Part shown: piece after piece, positions 2,685-64,000 of the stretch | Position numbering within the stretch: position 1 is the first letter of the stretch | Layout of the letters: each line of letters begins with the position of its first letter | IMG/VR virus record: IMGVR_UViG_3300007511_000004 | Coordinates: 1 to 64,000 of that record | Strand: one strand, 5' to 3' | From: a virus | Length of the DNA stretch: 64,000 nucleotides | Notes under the pieces: model-generated | Seen by the model: only the letters and a program-made list of their open reading frames with translations | Databases searched by the model: none | Told to the model about the DNA's origin: nothing | Made by a program: the position numbers and the translations under genes

Positions 2685-3259
2685 TATTTGTTAATCCATC
2701 TTTTATATGATAATTGTACACTCAATTCTACTGGCTCGCCATTCGCATCATTAAATTGTACTGGGGTTATTGTAGTAGGGTAGGCATTTATTAGTTCAAC
2801 GCCGCTCATCCTCTTCGTCACTGGATCGCCATACTCATTGGGGGACCCAGCAATCGGGTGTCTTCGGCCGTCTTTCGATAGTTGGAAAATGTGAACACTT
2901 CTGGTATATTCATTCCGGTATTTGGGATAATGGACATCGGCACGGCCATGCGCCACAGCCCCCATCTGCCAGCCTTCGAAATACGATTTTACCCAATGAT
3001 CTTCGGTAAGATTAAATGTTAATGTTACATCGTCGTGAGCATATCCGTATGCAACCTTCTCGTGAGATAATCCGACTCTCCGGTCTACTGAAAGTATCTG
3101 TTTGCCCGGCAAATTAGAAGCTTTACATAGAACTTCGATATCGCGTTCCATGCCGTCATCGGCTGGGGGTAATTTAATAGCAAATTTATTACTTTTAGCA
3201 AATCCGCCGCCGTTCCCCATTACACTTTTGAGTTCGCCAACACTGAATTCGGTTATCAT
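2684..3259 (-). CDS. Tail tube-fold protein (gp54/gp19-like tail tube initiator)
   Basis: GGFAKSNKF, LCKASNLPGK, VTLTF..YFEGWQ, ELINAYPT, SVQLSYKRW tube-family motifs; synteny. Confidence 0.7.
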   Translation of the reverse strand: MITEFSVGELKSVMGNGGGFAKSNKFAIKLPPADDGMERDIEVLCKASNLPGKQILSVDRRVGLSHEKVAYGYAHDDVTLTFNLTEDHWVKSYFEGWQMGAVAHGRADVHYPKYRNEYTRSVHIFQLSKDGRRHPIAGSPNEYGDPVTKRMSGVELINAYPTTITPVQFNDANGEPVELSVQLSYKRWINK

Positions 3260-3843
3260 TAGATCATTCTCCTAGAATCTCTATAGACTTTATTTTCTGA
3301 AGCCTTTTTAAATTGAGCAGTTGGTAGAAACGTTGCGATCTCCCACTCGGGCGGGGGGATGTACGCAAATTTACTTTTTACGTGATTACTTAGGTAATGT
3401 TTAAAACAGGGCTTAAAGTGTCTAAGGGTGCCTGACGATTTCAATAGATCGTAATTTGCAGCTATTCGAGTAGATTCATCGAACTTCTTATTATTTAAAT
3501 TGGCCATCAATGCGTCCAATAATTTAGCTCTGAGTACTGGTGGGAGATAATGAAGATTTAGCCCATGAAACCCACCTTCGGCTGGTCCGACTAGAACTAC
3601 AAGGGGGAAGGTATCATAATAGGGTAACGTTTCTTTATGTTTAGGATCGTAAAAATACATATACATGCTACCAGGTTTGAATTCACCTACTTGTTTGATA
3701 GGATCCTCCCGCATGAGGGCTCTTCGATTAATCCCCGACATTTCGTCGGCTTTCTTACGGAACCAAGCAATGGATCGCTTAGTCCTCGGGGTAACCCCGT
3801 TTCGGAAAGCTTCGAGTTCCAACTTCTGGAAGATATTAGACAT
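3259..3843 (-). CDS. gp2: DNA end protector protein
   Basis: MYMYFYDPKHKETLPYYDTFPLV, GLNLHYLPP, PCFKHYL, EWEIATFLPTAQF. Confidence 0.92.
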   Translation of the reverse strand: MSNIFQKLELEAFRNGVTPRTKRSIAWFRKKADEMSGINRRALMREDPIKQVGEFKPGSMYMYFYDPKHKETLPYYDTFPLVVLVGPAEGGFHGLNLHYLPPVLRAKLLDALMANLNNKKFDESTRIAANYDLLKSSGTLRHFKPCFKHYLSNHVKSKFAYIPPPEWEIATFLPTAQFKKASENKVYRDSRRMI

Positions 3844-3848
3844 ATATT

Positions 3849-4361
3849 TTATTTCCTAGACTTCTTCCTTTTATTTATGGTACTTTTCTTCGCTTTTGGA
3901 AGCGGTTTTAATTTAGGAAGCTTTCGATCTTTCATGATCCCCATTTTCTTTAAAGTATCCTCGGTCCAAATTTCAAATACCCAACCCCGGTCAGCCGCAT
4001 ATTCTTTCGCAGCTTCCCATTTATTCTGATTTTTTATAAAGGTGAGTGACTCATTTAAATACCTTTTAGTCCGTCTCCCTTTGAATTCAGGAGCAGTGGT
4101 TTCCTTCTTAGGTTTAATCTCTATCAATATAATCCTATCATCATAGTGGATTAGCAGATCTACGAAATATCGATGATACCGCTTATCGACATCATAATAA
4201 TATGGCACCACAACTTCTTCACTTGACCACTTCTTTACTCCAGGGGTAACATCACACCACATAAAGCAGTATTTTTCCCACATAGATCGATATACGACTT
4301 TATCCGGATCACCCCGATACTTGTTCCTATTTTTTACTCTATATACTCCAGAATAAGCCAT
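3849..4361 (-). CDS. gp4: Head completion nuclease
   Basis: MAYSG...KYRGDP..VVYRSMWE, WSSEE, HRYFVD, IEIKP, NQNKWEAA. The likely start is the ATG at 4361 (track gives 4373). Confidence 0.92.
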   Translation of the reverse strand: MAYSGVYRVKNRNKYRGDPDKVVYRSMWEKYCFMWCDVTPGVKKWSSEEVVVPYYYDVDKRYHRYFVDLLIHYDDRIILIEIKPKKETTAPEFKGRRTKRYLNESLTFIKNQNKWEAAKEYAADRGWVFEIWTEDTLKKMGIMKDRKLPKLKPLPKAKKSTINKRKKSRK

Positions 4362-4370
4362 TAAATCCCA

Positions 4371-4402
4371 CATAAATAAACTAGAAAGACTTATTTATTT
4401 AT
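4371..4402. promoter_or_regulatory. Divergent T4-type late promoters between gp4 and gp48
   Basis: CATAAATA at 4371-4378 (+) and ATAAATAAATAA on the minus strand at about 4391-4402. Confidence 0.6.
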
Positions 4403-4414
4403 CGGTAGAGTTAT

Positions 4415-5293
4415 ATGACTAAGAAACTACAATACCCAAGAGATACTGACGATTTCGAGGGAAACGCGCAGATTGTCTTTAGCCGGCTGAGGGCAGTCAA
4501 CACGCACACGCACCCAGGCATGGGGGCCGAAGAATCAGTCGTAGTGGACCCGGGGACCGGCGAAGGGTTAATACCGGAAGAAGTAATCCGGATGTTCGTC
4601 CCGCCGGGTCTAGTGTTTCCTGATGGTTCTCAATATTCCAATACCGATTTAGGATTGGCCGGTGGCATGGTTGCATCGGCAGCTAGGGGCAAGATAGGTG
4701 AAGATGCAGCAAAGGCGGTGGAGAACATAAACTGGGACGAAGCCAAAGACTTCGCCTCTGGCGCTTTGATCGCCACTGGATTATCTGTAGCGGCGATGGC
4801 TGCAGGCAAACTTTTCGGTGATACCTTTGCCGGGGCAGTCGGCGGTGCAGTAGGGGTTGGAGCTCTAAGCCCCGGATTGAACTTCGGGACTGGAAGGGTT
4901 TTTAACCCCAACACCAAATCGCTCTTTCAGGGAGTTAATATCCGAAGCTTTACTTTCCAATTCCATATGATCCCCCAATCAGCCTTAGAGGCTGAGTCCG
5001 TTGCGGAGATCACCAAGATCTTTAGAAAGCACGTTTACCCCGAAAAAGTTACCACTGGGCTTTCTGTTAAATTTCCGGATAAATGGTTGGTCGAGATTTT
5101 TCCTGGCCCACTGGAAACGAAAGACGATTACAAGATTAAATTTAAGCCCGCGTTCCTGACAAGCATGAGTCGTACATATAACCCCACTGCAACTTCGTTC
5201 CATGCTGACGGTGCACCAGTCGAGACTTTAATTACATTGAATTTCACCGAAAGTGTGACAATCGATCAACAAGATGTTGAGGATGGATTCTAA
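4415..5293 (+). CDS. gp48: Baseplate tail tube cap
   Basis: LQYP start, FNPNTKSLFQGVNIRSFTFQFHMIPQSALEA, YNP...FHADGAPVET.ITLNFTE. Confidence 0.88.
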   Translation: MTKKLQYPRDTDDFEGNAQIVFSRLRAVNTHTHPGMGAEESVVVDPGTGEGLIPEEVIRMFVPPGLVFPDGSQYSNTDLGLAGGMVASAARGKIGEDAAKAVENINWDEAKDFASGALIATGLSVAAMAAGKLFGDTFAGAVGGAVGVGALSPGLNFGTGRVFNPNTKSLFQGVNIRSFTFQFHMIPQSALEAESVAEITKIFRKHVYPEKVTTGLSVKFPDKWLVEIFPGPLETKDDYKIKFKPAFLTSMSRTYNPTATSFHADGAPVETLITLNFTESVTIDQQDVEDGF

Positions 5294-59458: not shown

Positions 59459-59466
59459 TATAAATA
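59459..59466 (+). promoter_or_regulatory. T4 late promoter
   Basis: TATAAATA upstream of gp13. Confidence 0.75.
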
Positions 59467-61196: not shown

Positions 61197-61958
61197 TTGT
61201 TTGGATCACATTTCTACCATGAAAGGATTAGGAAATCAGTAGCCACCTTCGGCTCACTGTTTAATAACCTATATGTGGTACGGCAGGATGCTTCGGGTGG
61301 GGTATTAAACCAGCAGAAGGTTCCACTGGCATACGCACCGCGGATGAAATACCTTGAGAGGATTCGGGAACAGCAGGATCTGGCTACTGATCAAAAGGTG
61401 GCGCTGAAGCTCCCCCGCATTTCGTTTGAAATGACTTCGATTCAGTATGATTCGACACGTATGACCAGTAAAACAAACAAATTTAGTGCTTATGATACAG
61501 ATACCAATAAGAAAGTTTTTTATGCGGGTGTACCATATAACCTATATTTCGACTTAAACATATATGCTAATACGCAAGAAGATGCGCTGCAAATAGTCGA
61601 GCAGATCATTCCATATTTTGCTCCGCAGTACACATTGACCCTTAAACCATTTAATGCTTATCCGACTATCAAAGAAGATGTTCCGATCACTATTGTATCA
61701 TCGGCCTTCACTGATGACTTCGAAGGTCCGGTAGACGTACGAAGAACTATTATCTACACGCTTTCATTTGAGATGAAAGTAATGTTCTACGGGCCAATCG
61801 GGGATGCATCCATTATCAGGAGTGTACAAACTAATTACTTCCTTATGGGTGATTCTGACGGACCAGTTACCGAGATTACAACAGTACCGAACCCGCTTGA
61901 CGTCGATCCGGATTCCGACTACGGCTTCACAACTACGAAGGTGGATTATATAGGATAA
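61197..61958 (+). CDS. gp15: Tail sheath stabilizer/terminator
   Basis: MFGSHFYHERIRKSVATFGSLFN, VPLAYAP, LPRISFE, QIVEQIIPYF; TTG start with AGGAG SD. Confidence 0.95.
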   Translation: MFGSHFYHERIRKSVATFGSLFNNLYVVRQDASGGVLNQQKVPLAYAPRMKYLERIREQQDLATDQKVALKLPRISFEMTSIQYDSTRMTSKTNKFSAYDTDTNKKVFYAGVPYNLYFDLNIYANTQEDALQIVEQIIPYFAPQYTLTLKPFNAYPTIKEDVPITIVSSAFTDDFEGPVDVRRTIIYTLSFEMKVMFYGPIGDASIIRSVQTNYFLMGDSDGPVTEITTVPNPLDVDPDSDYGFTTTKVDYIG

Positions 61959-61962
61959 GATA

Positions 61963-62328
61963 ATGAGTGACTCTGATAGACAAGTTGAAGATGATTTTGA
62001 ATATTCTCGTAAGGTATATCTGGATTTAATTGCTACCGGGCAAGAAGCCCTGGGATCAATGTTAGATGTGGCGGATGAGAGCCAACACCCTAGATCTTAT
62101 GAAGTACTGTCCGGTATGATTAAGAATATTAGTGATGTAAACGACCGGCTTATGGATATCCATAAAAAGAAGAAAGATATCGCAAAGCCCGCTGATCAAG
62201 CTGCCTTACCCCCCACCACCAATAATCTATTCGTAGGATCAACTGCAGAATTACAGAAGATGCTTATTTCGAATAAAAAGGAGGAAGATAACGTGATTGA
62301 TGTGAGTGAATATAGTGATGACAAATGA
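61963..62328 (+). CDS. gp16: Terminase small subunit
   Basis: DFEYSR, HPRSYEV, NNLFVGSTAELQKML. Confidence 0.92.
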   Translation: MSDSDRQVEDDFEYSRKVYLDLIATGQEALGSMLDVADESQHPRSYEVLSGMIKNISDVNDRLMDIHKKKKDIAKPADQAALPPTTNNLFVGSTAELQKMLISNKKEEDNVIDVSEYSDDK

Positions 62329-62701
62329 TGAGGGCTATTTAGGTAACGCTAACATTAAACGCGATGGCGTTATCCACAATTTCACAGAATATGAAGTCCA
62401 AGAATATATTAAATGTTCAACGGATCCTGCTTATTTCGCAAAGATATACTGTAAAGTAATCTCTCTGGATAAAGGCCTTGTACCCTTTGACCTTTATCCC
62501 TATCAGGAGAGAATGTTCGAACATTTCAATGATAATAGATTCTCTATTGTCCTGGCATGTCGTCAATCCGGGAAGTGTCAAAAATCTGATTCTTATATAC
62601 ACATACGTAACAAGAAAACAAATAAAGAAGAACGTATAGCTATAGGTGATTTTCATGAAAGAATTAAAAGAAATATGCAGCAAGATAATCAAGGAATCTA
62701 G
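62306..62701 (+). CDS. gp17: Terminase large subunit N-terminal fragment fused to a split-intein N-part
   Basis: YLGNANIK..EYIKC..DP.YF..LYPYQ..CRQSGK, then CQKSDSYIHIR...*. Likely start is the ATG at 62318. Confidence 0.9.
   Translation: MNIVMTNDEGYLGNANIKRDGVIHNFTEYEVQEYIKCSTDPAYFAKIYCKVISLDKGLVPFDLYPYQERMFEHFNDNRFSIVLACRQSGKCQKSDSYIHIRNKKTNKEERIAIGDFHERIKRNMQQDNQGI
62576..62698 (+). mobile_element. Split intein N-fragment (41 aa)
   Basis: Cys1 immediately after the Walker A Lys; block A-like CQKSDSYIHIR..IAIGDF. Confidence 0.8.
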
Positions 62702-63077
62702 TGCAAAGGGAAGGTCTAAACATCCATTATACGCAGATAACATAGATGCCATCATATCAACTCATGATATGATATTTGAGCATATGAAGCACAAGCCTAT
62801 AGGTCAAAAAATATCGAGGCTGTATGCAGAATTAGAAAAGGATGGCTCGGGCAAGGTAGTTTGTGTGGTGTGCAATGTATATACTAGAGATGATATTACC
62901 CAACATATACGCAGGTCTCATAATATGGATATTATCACAGAGTATAAACATATGAATTTTTATGATTGCTTCAAAAAAGAACAAGCCATATTAAGAGAAT
63001 ATAAAGATCACAGGATTAATATAAATTATAATGGATTTAAAACGACAGAGGCATTCAATGCAGCGGTTGCTATCTGA
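62646..63077 (+). CDS. Free-standing ORF between the intein halves; probable degenerate homing endonuclease
   Basis: CxxC..HxxxxH zinc finger; C-terminal EQAIL...GFKTTEAF resembles the tail of a GIY-YIG/T5orf172 domain; no N-terminal catalytic motif seen. Confidence 0.45.
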   Translation: MIFMKELKEICSKIIKESSAKGRSKHPLYADNIDAIISTHDMIFEHMKHKPIGQKISRLYAELEKDGSGKVVCVVCNVYTRDDITQHIRRSHNMDIITEYKHMNFYDCFKKEQAILREYKDHRININYNGFKTTEAFNAAVAI

Positions 63078-63429
63078 TAATACAGAGAGAAAATTCATTG
63101 AAGAGTTTGACGTTTCCGATTATGAAATTCTTACTGAAGATGGGTATAAGGATATTACATCATCCAAAAAGACCATCAAATATGATATATGGAAAGTAAC
63201 CTGTGAGAATGGGCATTTCATAGAATGCGCTGATACCCACATTATTATAGATTCGAATGGCACTGAGATATATGCTAAGGATTCTTTGGGTGCATTGATA
63301 CAGACTATTGACGGTAACAGTAAAGTAATATCTGTGGTTAAGGATAATATTCCCCCAGAACATATGTATGATTTATCTGTCAACTCTGATACACATACGT
63401 TTTATTCTAATGGTATATTAAGTCATAAT
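63058..63429 (+). mobile_element. Split intein C-fragment (124 aa)
   Basis: ILTEDGYKDI, IECADTH (block B), MYDLSV..HTFYSNGILSHN/S (blocks F and G). Confidence 0.88.
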
Positions 63430-64000
63430 AGCATCAGTTCAGTTGCGTATCTATTGTGGTATGCGATTTTCACCCCCGAGAAAACAGTTGCAATCCTGGC
63501 TAACAAAGGGGATACCGCCCGAGAGATGTTGGCGCGGGTTACCTTAATGCTGGAGAATCTCCCGTTCTTCCTTCAGCCAGGAACAAAGGTTTTAAATAAA
63601 GGCTCTTTAGAATTTAGTAACCATAGTCGTATCATCGCCCGAGCGACTTCCGGCTCATCTATTCGTGGTATGTCGGTTAACTTACTTTACTTGGATGAGT
63701 TTGCCTTTGTGGAACGTGCTACTGAGTTCTATACATCAACTTATCCCGTGGTATCTTCAGGTAAAGATACTAAGGTTATTATCACCTCCACCGCTAATGG
63801 AATAGGGAACATATATCATAAATTATGGGAGGGTGCGGTTCAGGGCACTAATGATTATAAACCCTTTAGAGTTGATTGGTGGGATGTACCCGGCCGCGAT
63901 GAAGAGTGGAAGAAACAAACTATTGCTAATACTTCTCCGTTGCAATTTGAACAGGAGTTCTTAAATTCATTCCTGGGGACGGGAGACACTCTAGTTGCTG
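63058..64000 (+). CDS. gp17: Split-intein C-part fused to terminase large subunit C-terminal fragment (runs off the window)
   Basis: Manual translation MQRLLSD...NGILSHN|SISSVAYLLWYAIF..AILANK..IRGMSVNLLYLDEFAF..IITSTANG..FEQEF; GAGG SD upstream. Confidence 0.92.
   Translation, partial: MQRLLSDNTERKFIEEFDVSDYEILTEDGYKDITSSKKTIKYDIWKVTCENGHFIECADTHIIIDSNGTEIYAKDSLGALIQTIDGNSKVISVVKDNIPPEHMYDLSVNSDTHTFYSNGILSHNSISSVAYLLWYAIFTPEKTVAILANKGDTAREMLARVTLMLENLPFFLQPGTKVLNKGSLEFSNHSRIIARATSGSSIRGMSVNLLYLDEFAFVERATEFYTSTYPVVSSGKDTKVIITSTANGIGNIYHKLWEGAVQGTNDYKPFRVDWWDVPGRDEEWKKQTIANTSPLQFEQEFLNSFLGTGDTLVA

Follow-up and report, generated by a model that had tools for sequence, protein, structure and literature searches.

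The large terminase subunit gene (terL) of a marine, T4-like phage is, with a probability of about 0.88, a fractured gene, in which a class 1 mini-intein lies between the lysine and the serine of the Walker A motif and is split by a homing endonuclease gene, and from which TerL would be restored by protein trans-splicing. The gene is located at the end of the window, which is the first 64 kb (64,000 nucleotides) of a 146,556-bp IMG/VR virus record (IMGVR_UViG_3300007511_000004) with direct terminal repeats and a completeness rating of 100%, and it is spread over three overlapping forward open reading frames (ORF-A, ORF-B, and ORF-C). A genome-wide search gave a single terL match, and the phage depends on this only copy in the complete genome, in keeping with the essential role that the original prediction had given to the packaging ATPase. 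The two frame breaks in terL are there because a decayed homing endonuclease gene sits between the N-terminal and C-terminal pieces of the intein (IntN and IntC).

The two intein halves and their exteins

ORF-A extends on the forward strand from an ATG at 62318, where the database gene call (P0001) also begins, to 62701; an alternative GTG start is located at 62306. It reads ...NDNRFSIVLACRQSGK/CQKSDSYIHIRNKKTNKEERIAIGDFHERIKRNMQQDNQGI and then stops, the slash marking the boundary between the N-extein and IntN. The TerL N-extein (62318 to 62575, 86 residues from the ATG) reaches into the first part of Walker A, ending ..ACRQSGK, and IntN (62576 to 62701) consists of Cys1 (62576) and 40 further residues before the stop. 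The conserved core of IntN comprises the first ~32 residues (62576 to 62671), with strands β1 and β2 and helix α1, and the last 7 to 9 residues form a variable tail. ORF-A matched the terminase large subunit family PHROG 5989 (E value, 1.5e-18).

ORF-C is read on the same strand in a different frame, from an ATG at 63058 with its own Shine-Dalgarno (SD) sequence (GAGG, 63047 to 63050), past the window end to genome position 64776. Its first 124 residues are IntC (63058 to 63429), in which block B (ECADTHIII), block F (EHMYDLSV..HTFY), and block G (ILSHN) were recognized. IntC is followed directly by the C-extein, SISSVAYLLWYAIF..., which starts at Ser+1, the Ser/Thr position of Walker A, and has 448 residues in total (63430 to 64000 and on to genome position 64776). 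ORF-C matched Pfam Terminase_6N (7e-19). On the 890-position terminase profile PHROG 36964, ORF-A matched positions 17 to 99 and ORF-C positions 413 to 638, leaving room for an insert of roughly 310 positions in the profile. The break within Walker A that the original prediction had placed between Lys and Ser was thus confirmed from the ORFs and their relatives, and the 41- and 124-residue lengths of the pieces, the separate start of ORF-C, and the blocks ending in SHN/S were all confirmed.

Database relatives of ORF-A were surveyed among the best 120 listed. Ten of these protein clusters end after IntN, one of them being present on 60 contigs, and 107 run on through RQxGK-S/T with no intein. 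At the predicted junction, the sequence of the intein-free relatives is RQSGKSISSVAYLLW, and several uninterrupted relatives have RQSGK-SISSVAYLLW, which matches letter for letter the spliced sequence that had been predicted. Six further TerL N-terminal proteins (P0010, P0013, P0018, P0021, P0035, and P0044; 140 to 229 residues, on contigs of 90 to 143 kb) pass Walker A uninterrupted and stop early, and these may be terminases fractured at other sites.

The fractured layout recurs widely. An IntC relative with 42 to 79% identity is encoded on 24 viral contigs, and about 20 independent viral contigs, at 43 to 79% IntC identity, show the fractured layout. In the contigs that reach far enough upstream, except one with a contiguous intein (L024), the N-terminal piece ends with GK/C, 33 to 49 residues, and a stop; this was seen at 15 loci, and Cys1 was present in 15 of the 15 loci examined. 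IntC has a separate start codon in these contigs, most often in a different frame. The window itself comes from a metagenome-assembled virus, so an assembly or sequencing artefact, a dead allele, or a defective phage genome had to be considered as the origin of the breaks. Both frame breaks are spanned without indels by Logan contigs of four runs, which belong to two studies of marine or seawater metagenomes, at a depth reaching ~21x in one run, and the breaks are therefore genuine, although one of the four runs may be the source sample of the window. These contigs differ from the window only at 62599 (A>T, silent) and 62600 (C>T, changing His9 of IntN to Tyr), in three of the four runs; the differences are a population polymorphism, and residue 9 is Tyr in the L004-type relatives. 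With these stops and starts found again in divergent contigs of many samples, both intein halves under purifying selection, and a complete genome with terminal repeats, an artefactual or defective gene is the least probable of the explanations considered.

The selection estimates are expressed as pN/pS ratios, because saturation of the synonymous sites among the window, L004, and L010 makes dN/dS unusable; these ratios do not allow the ORF-B deletion described below to be dated. The pN/pS values were 0.18 to 0.30 for IntC, 0.24 to 0.48 for IntN, and 0.20 to 0.27 for the exteins; by this measure both intein halves are under purifying selection. Five residues of IntC, H61 (block B His), D105 and H113 (block F Asp and His), and H123 and N124 (terminal His-Asn), were invariant in 12 sequences, and the +1 residue was Ser or Thr in every IntC family member examined. 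The net charge is +3 for IntN and −11 for IntC, with family ranges of 0 to +6 and −10 to −21. A basic IntN and an acidic IntC fit the electrostatic pairing of halves described for split inteins (PMC2677866).

When IntC alone was searched against the inteins in the PDB, the matches were gp41-1 (3.6e-5), VidaL (1.5e-3), and CatC (1.9e-3). A profile of the 12 IntC family sequences gave 2e-10, 7.6e-10, and 2.9e-6, respectively, against the same solved inteins. No meaningful PDB match was obtained with the N-extein and IntN of the window searched as one piece or with the corresponding piece from the third intein site of L024. The contig L024 carries a contiguous homologue of 152 residues at the same site (L024:2884-3339, GK/C...SHN/S). 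The window IntN aligns with residues 1 to 32 of this intein and IntC from about residue 38, so that the two halves tile one intein. An AlphaFold model of the contiguous homologue had a pLDDT (predicted local distance difference test) score of 93.5, with strands at residues 7 to 12 and 18 to 22 and a helix at 23 to 28. Its only low-confidence stretch, residues 31 to 40, directly follows this helix, and the break in the window maps to this loop, placing the split after helix α1, at the S2 position assigned to AceL-TerL and GOS-TerL (PMC13014065). The nearest structure in the PDB was VidaL (template modeling scores, 0.79/0.83; root mean square deviation, 2.0 Å), followed by dozens of other inteins. 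Modeled on the contiguous homologue, the window halves together most likely form one HINT domain, and the element is classified from its sequence as an atypically split class 1 mini-intein that is predicted to splice.

In the proposed mechanism, the three ORFs would most likely be translated from one late transcript, giving the N-extein with IntN, the endonuclease remnant, and IntC with the C-extein. The basic IntN and the acidic IntC would associate to complete the HINT domain. Trans-splicing would then proceed through an N-S acyl shift at Cys1, attack by Ser+1, cyclization of Asn124, and an O-N shift. The product would be a TerL of 534 residues with an intact P-loop (RQSGKS), and no packaging ATPase would be formed without splicing.

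A different possibility is that the TerL fragments join noncovalently and that the intein halves serve only as a dimerization module. Split genes that work without splicing exist in T-even phages, and the NrdA of phage Aeh1, split by a homing endonuclease, works without ligation (cited in PMC2677866). In the window, however, the break falls between the Lys and Ser of the P-loop, where an unexcised HINT domain of ~150 residues would occupy the ATP-binding loop. All splicing residues are invariant down to 43% identity, which mere dimerization would not require, and the contiguous homologues at the same site, in the phages Kuja and VP-1 and in L024, must splice to function. Noncovalent assembly is therefore very unlikely.

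The halves could also be joined before or during translation, by an RNA intron, frameshifting, or bypassing, giving a contiguous intein-TerL or an IntN-endonuclease fusion. The overlaps of ORF-B with the end of ORF-A (47 nt) and with the start of ORF-C (20 nt) are compatible with such joining, but ORF-B and ORF-C each have their own SD sequence and ATG. No Rfam intron family was detected in 62200 to 63600 at E values up to 1, the only matches being two chance ones to microRNA families. Even in three contigs with no middle ORF (L015, L020, and L022), IntN is terminated by a stop codon and IntC starts at a new ATG in another frame. When the RNA of the window and of L004 was folded at both ORF junctions, z-scores ranged from −1.8 to +0.4 and no significant or conserved structure was seen, which gives no support for the hairpin control elements that have been reported at some fractured loci. 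Taken with these results, joining before or during translation is highly improbable.

The endonuclease remnant between the halves

ORF-B (62655 to 63077, forward strand, 140 residues) has the SD sequence AGGTGA at 62643 to 62648. Its product retains an N-terminal zinc finger part (CxxC..HxxxxH) and only the last ~50 residues of a T5orf172 nuclease domain. The match to Pfam T5orf172 was 17.2 bits, under the 20-bit cutoff, and covered only profile positions 38 to 89 of 101. At the same position, the L004 group, whose IntC is 79% identical, has an ORF of 348 residues and L012 has one of 392 residues, both of which pass the T5orf172 cutoff; the L004 ORF scored 24.0 bits over positions 1 to 87. ORF-B is collinear with the 348-residue ORF except for one in-frame gap of 208 residues, and the deleted part holds the first half of the nuclease domain, including the GILYLIKF..FWKVGITS segment. 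ORF-B is, as judged from this alignment, a decayed free-standing homing endonuclease gene of the T5orf172 type (GIY-YIG superfamily), and its product is probably inactive.

The deletion junction (..RRSHN/MDIITEY.., 62919 to 62933) was located by the alignment with L004 and by the point at which a contig of run X1 diverges. This 394-nt contig tracks the window to 62933 and then encodes ..DDYKSKYNSP, resembling the undeleted L004 form ..SEYKDRYDSA. Since the contig departs at the deletion junction, the deleted and undeleted forms of ORF-B probably coexist in the X1 sample. Two other contigs were set aside. A 499-nt contig found in runs X4 and X5 joins 62732 to 62925, as in a further in-frame deletion of 192 nt (64 codons) with the same right-hand junction, but its left side has only 29 nt, too short to count. 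A contig of X2 joins 62768 to 62890, and its 22 nt on one side were likewise too short.

In L010 and L011, only a 32-residue in-frame remnant of the middle ORF is left, and both of the well-supported deletions in the middle ORF are in frame. The SD sequence of ORF-C lies within the last ~40 nt of ORF-B, and these nucleotides are near-invariant in the window, L004, L010, and L012, and the stretch TATAATGGATTTAAAACnACnGAGGCATT is conserved in these four despite saturated synonymous sites elsewhere. The translation start region of ORF-C (63030 to 63057, forward strand, including the GAGG) lies inside this 3' end. The frame of ORF-B and its last ~40 nt are probably kept because the ribosome-binding region of ORF-C lies there.

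Several observations weigh against the proposed reading of the locus. The Thr of the block B TxxH motif is replaced by Ala in the window; the same Ala occurs in VidaL, which splices fast. A Cys1/Ser+1 intein needs a thioester-to-oxyester step, which is common in contiguous inteins and would here take place in trans. IntN has 7 to 9 additional C-terminal residues compared with its nearest relatives. The proposed inactivity of the ORF-B product has a single basis, the missing half of the nuclease domain, and the surviving parts of ORF-B had pN/pS values of 0.26 to 0.29 against L004. These values may reflect some retained function or a recent deletion.

The locus lies within a T4-type block of late genes in the order gp15-like, gp16-like, and terL. 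The gp15-like tail sheath stabilizer gene is at 61197 to 61958 (PF16724, 7.8e-66). It is followed by the gp16-like small terminase subunit gene (61963 to 62328, forward strand), whose match to Pfam DNA_Packaging (5e-5) is below the curated cutoff and whose stop overlaps the terL start by 11 nt. A promoter scan gave 13 sigma-70-like sites compared with 9.3 expected, and no terminators were found in the promoter and terminator scan. The T4 late promoter box TATAAATA was not found at the locus, its nearest copy being at 59459.

Gain, loss, and possible movement within the intein family

The gene between the halves differs among the relatives. L015, L020, and L022 have no middle ORF and a still-split intein, and five contigs (L016, L017, L018, L021, and L023) have another endonuclease between the halves, with a C-terminal DUF559/MTES_1575 (Vsr-like) domain. 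The Vsr-like endonuclease family was first described in fractured genes (PMC2677866). At the DNA level, the inteins of L016 and L024 are collinear apart from the endonuclease cassette of L016, which has its own SD sequence and lies between ..TCTATTGAA and ATGGAAACTGAAAAATTC...

In the intein tree, the split inteins of L016 and L017 (Vsr type) grouped with the contiguous intein of L024 (support, 99/97), and the split intein of Campylobacter phage F379 (T5orf172 type) grouped with the contiguous intein of Campylobacter phage CPt10 (100/100). L018 and L021 (split, Vsr type) grouped with L020 (split, no endonuclease; 100/99). As the deep branches of the tree were unresolved, no order of events or donor is claimed. 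Within these sequence comparisons, the Walker A intein family shows repeated gain and loss.

Other contigs of the family carry further interruptions. In L024 (2605-5565), one TerL ORF of 986 residues contains three contiguous mini-inteins, located in Walker A (2884-3339), just after Walker B (DEMDFIE/C..SHN/C, 3625-4023), and at REFE/C..SHN/C (4282-4671), and the engineered Cat intein has its closest relative in the third of these. In L018 (2992-5477), TerL has a second break. Here the ORF beginning with IntC ends ..AIRGFSIS/CVTGDTKITIRDTETGEVKEVTMREFEEMINKTS followed by a stop, which resembles another short IntN just before Walker B, and the remainder of the C-extein is found ~1.4 kb further downstream in a different frame, so that this TerL would be in at least three pieces. 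L023, a sister contig of L018, is uninterrupted at the site of this second break.

The same intein family with the same split also interrupts Walker A of a DnaB/gp41-like helicase (L019:1926-3962; ..GSAGLGK/C.. and ..SHN/TLILGN), with a short remnant of a Vsr-like endonuclease between the halves. On sequence evidence, this helicase intein suggests movement between the P-loops of different ATPases. In Caulobacter phage Cr30 (KF301602.1; L030:2342-3364), a free-standing "hypothetical protein" of 340 residues is 41% identical to the middle of the L004-type endonuclease, and its gene lies directly upstream of an apparently unbroken terL.

Comparison with known inteins and significance

Fractured genes were described in 2009 by Dassa, London, Stoddard, Schueler-Furman, and Pietrokovski (PMC2677866), and the layout in the window is of this known kind, which is common in phage metagenomes. 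The shared features are adjacent, overlapping ORFs on the same strand that end or begin with intein halves, in a phage context. Among the loci of that study, a single gp17-like terminase locus from Lake Gatun was the only split intein broken outside the canonical region of endonuclease insertion (PMC2677866). The window resembles it in having a T4-type terminase as the host and an atypical break near the N terminus. Unlike the genes described in 2009, the endonuclease in the window is a decayed remnant and not an intact gene. Its intact relatives are of the T5orf172 type, a branch of the GIY-YIG superfamily, whereas those of other Walker A family members are Vsr-like.

The characterized atypically split TerL inteins are AceL-TerL (IntN and IntC of 25 and 104 residues, Cys1/Cys+1), GOS-TerL (37 and 115 residues, Ser1/Cys+1), and Cat (30 and 104 residues) (PMC11766414). 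The window intein shares with AceL-TerL, GOS-TerL, and Cat (CatC, PDB 6DSL) the TerL host, class 1, and the S2 break after helix α1 (PMC13014065). It also shares with them a short IntN, of 41 residues (core of ~32) compared with 25 to 37, and a long IntC, of 124 residues compared with 104 to 115. The junction residues differ, since AceL-TerL and GOS-TerL have Cys+1, whereas Ser+1 of the window is the Walker A Ser/Thr; GOS-TerL, the published descendant of the Lake Gatun locus, is Ser1/Cys+1 and the window intein is Cys1/Ser+1. CatC matched the third TerL intein of L024 at 1.1e-14 (57.8 bits), the second intein, beside Walker B, at 2.5e-9, and the window IntC at 1.9e-3 (21.6 bits). Judged by such comparisons, the window intein is not allelic with AceL-TerL, GOS-TerL, or Cat, for which we infer the TerL insertion point. 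The likeness to AceL-TerL and GOS-TerL that had been noted earlier therefore stands for the short N-terminal half and the break after helix α1 but not for the site in TerL. Likewise, the short-N type is rare, as had been stated, among characterized inteins but not in phage metagenomes.

By sequence, the nearest solved relatives are gp41-1 (PDB 6QAZ) and VidaL (PDB 6VGV), at an identity of only about 20 to 25%, and neither the titles nor the molecule names of these PDB entries mention a terminase. VidaL, which is nearest by fold, is also naturally and atypically split and has the Ala in place of the block B Thr, but its split is earlier, after β2 (S1), leaving an IntN of 16 residues (PMC13014065), and not at S2 as in the window. 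Unlike the window intein, gp41-1 has its split in the canonical position (PMC13014065, PMC2677866). The window intein thus differs from the characterized TerL split inteins in its predicted insertion site, junction residue, and nearest relatives, as well as in its decayed endonuclease.

Homologues also occur in cultured phages, with 337 records containing a sequence 35 to 42% identical to the window IntC and TerL as the host in every record opened. Vibrio phages Kuja and VP-1 and Serratia phage 2050H1 (Ackermannviridae) have the identical site, RQSGK/C...SHN/T, but with contiguous mini-inteins. The inteins of Campylobacter phages lie three residues upstream (PRQ/C...SHN/SSKS); that of CPt10 is contiguous, and that of F379, a viable isolate, is fractured into three ORFs as in the window, with the insertion, following helix α1, of a homologous T5orf172 endonuclease. 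Campylobacter phage IBB_35 has been described as containing an "intein plus intron" (PMC3322345). The Lys and Ser/Thr pair of the P-loop is a "classic" intein site, which the unrelated TerL1-a inteins of mycobacteriophages occupy as well (PMC5050341).

For protein engineering, few characterized natural split inteins have an N-terminal piece short enough for peptide synthesis (IntN of 15 to 37 residues). The family described here may offer an IntN with a core of ~32 residues and Ser instead of Cys at the junction, possibly orthogonal to existing inteins. For phage biology, the window would be a clean case of an essential gene that is predicted to work only via posttranslational ligation. Together with its relatives, it also shows, at a single site, every stage in the life of a selfish element, from a contiguous mini-intein, through invasion by either of two unrelated endonuclease types and stepwise in-frame decay, to a split that persists after the endonuclease has been lost. 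Neither point alters current understanding, because the arrangement has been known since 2009 and metagenomic phages often carry it.

Two further ideas are offered jointly and tentatively, with the odds somewhat against the pair. The Walker A TerL inteins (Cys1, Ser/Thr+1, split at S2, VidaL-like fold) may constitute a separate, biochemically uncharacterized lineage of split inteins, and the fixed last ~40 nt of the decaying endonuclease gene may have been co-opted as the start region of IntC-TerL. If this is true, the Walker A TerL inteins would splice efficiently in trans and orthogonally to Cat and AceL-TerL, leaving Ser and not Cys, and expression of an essential phage gene would have come to require the remnant of a selfish gene as its signal.

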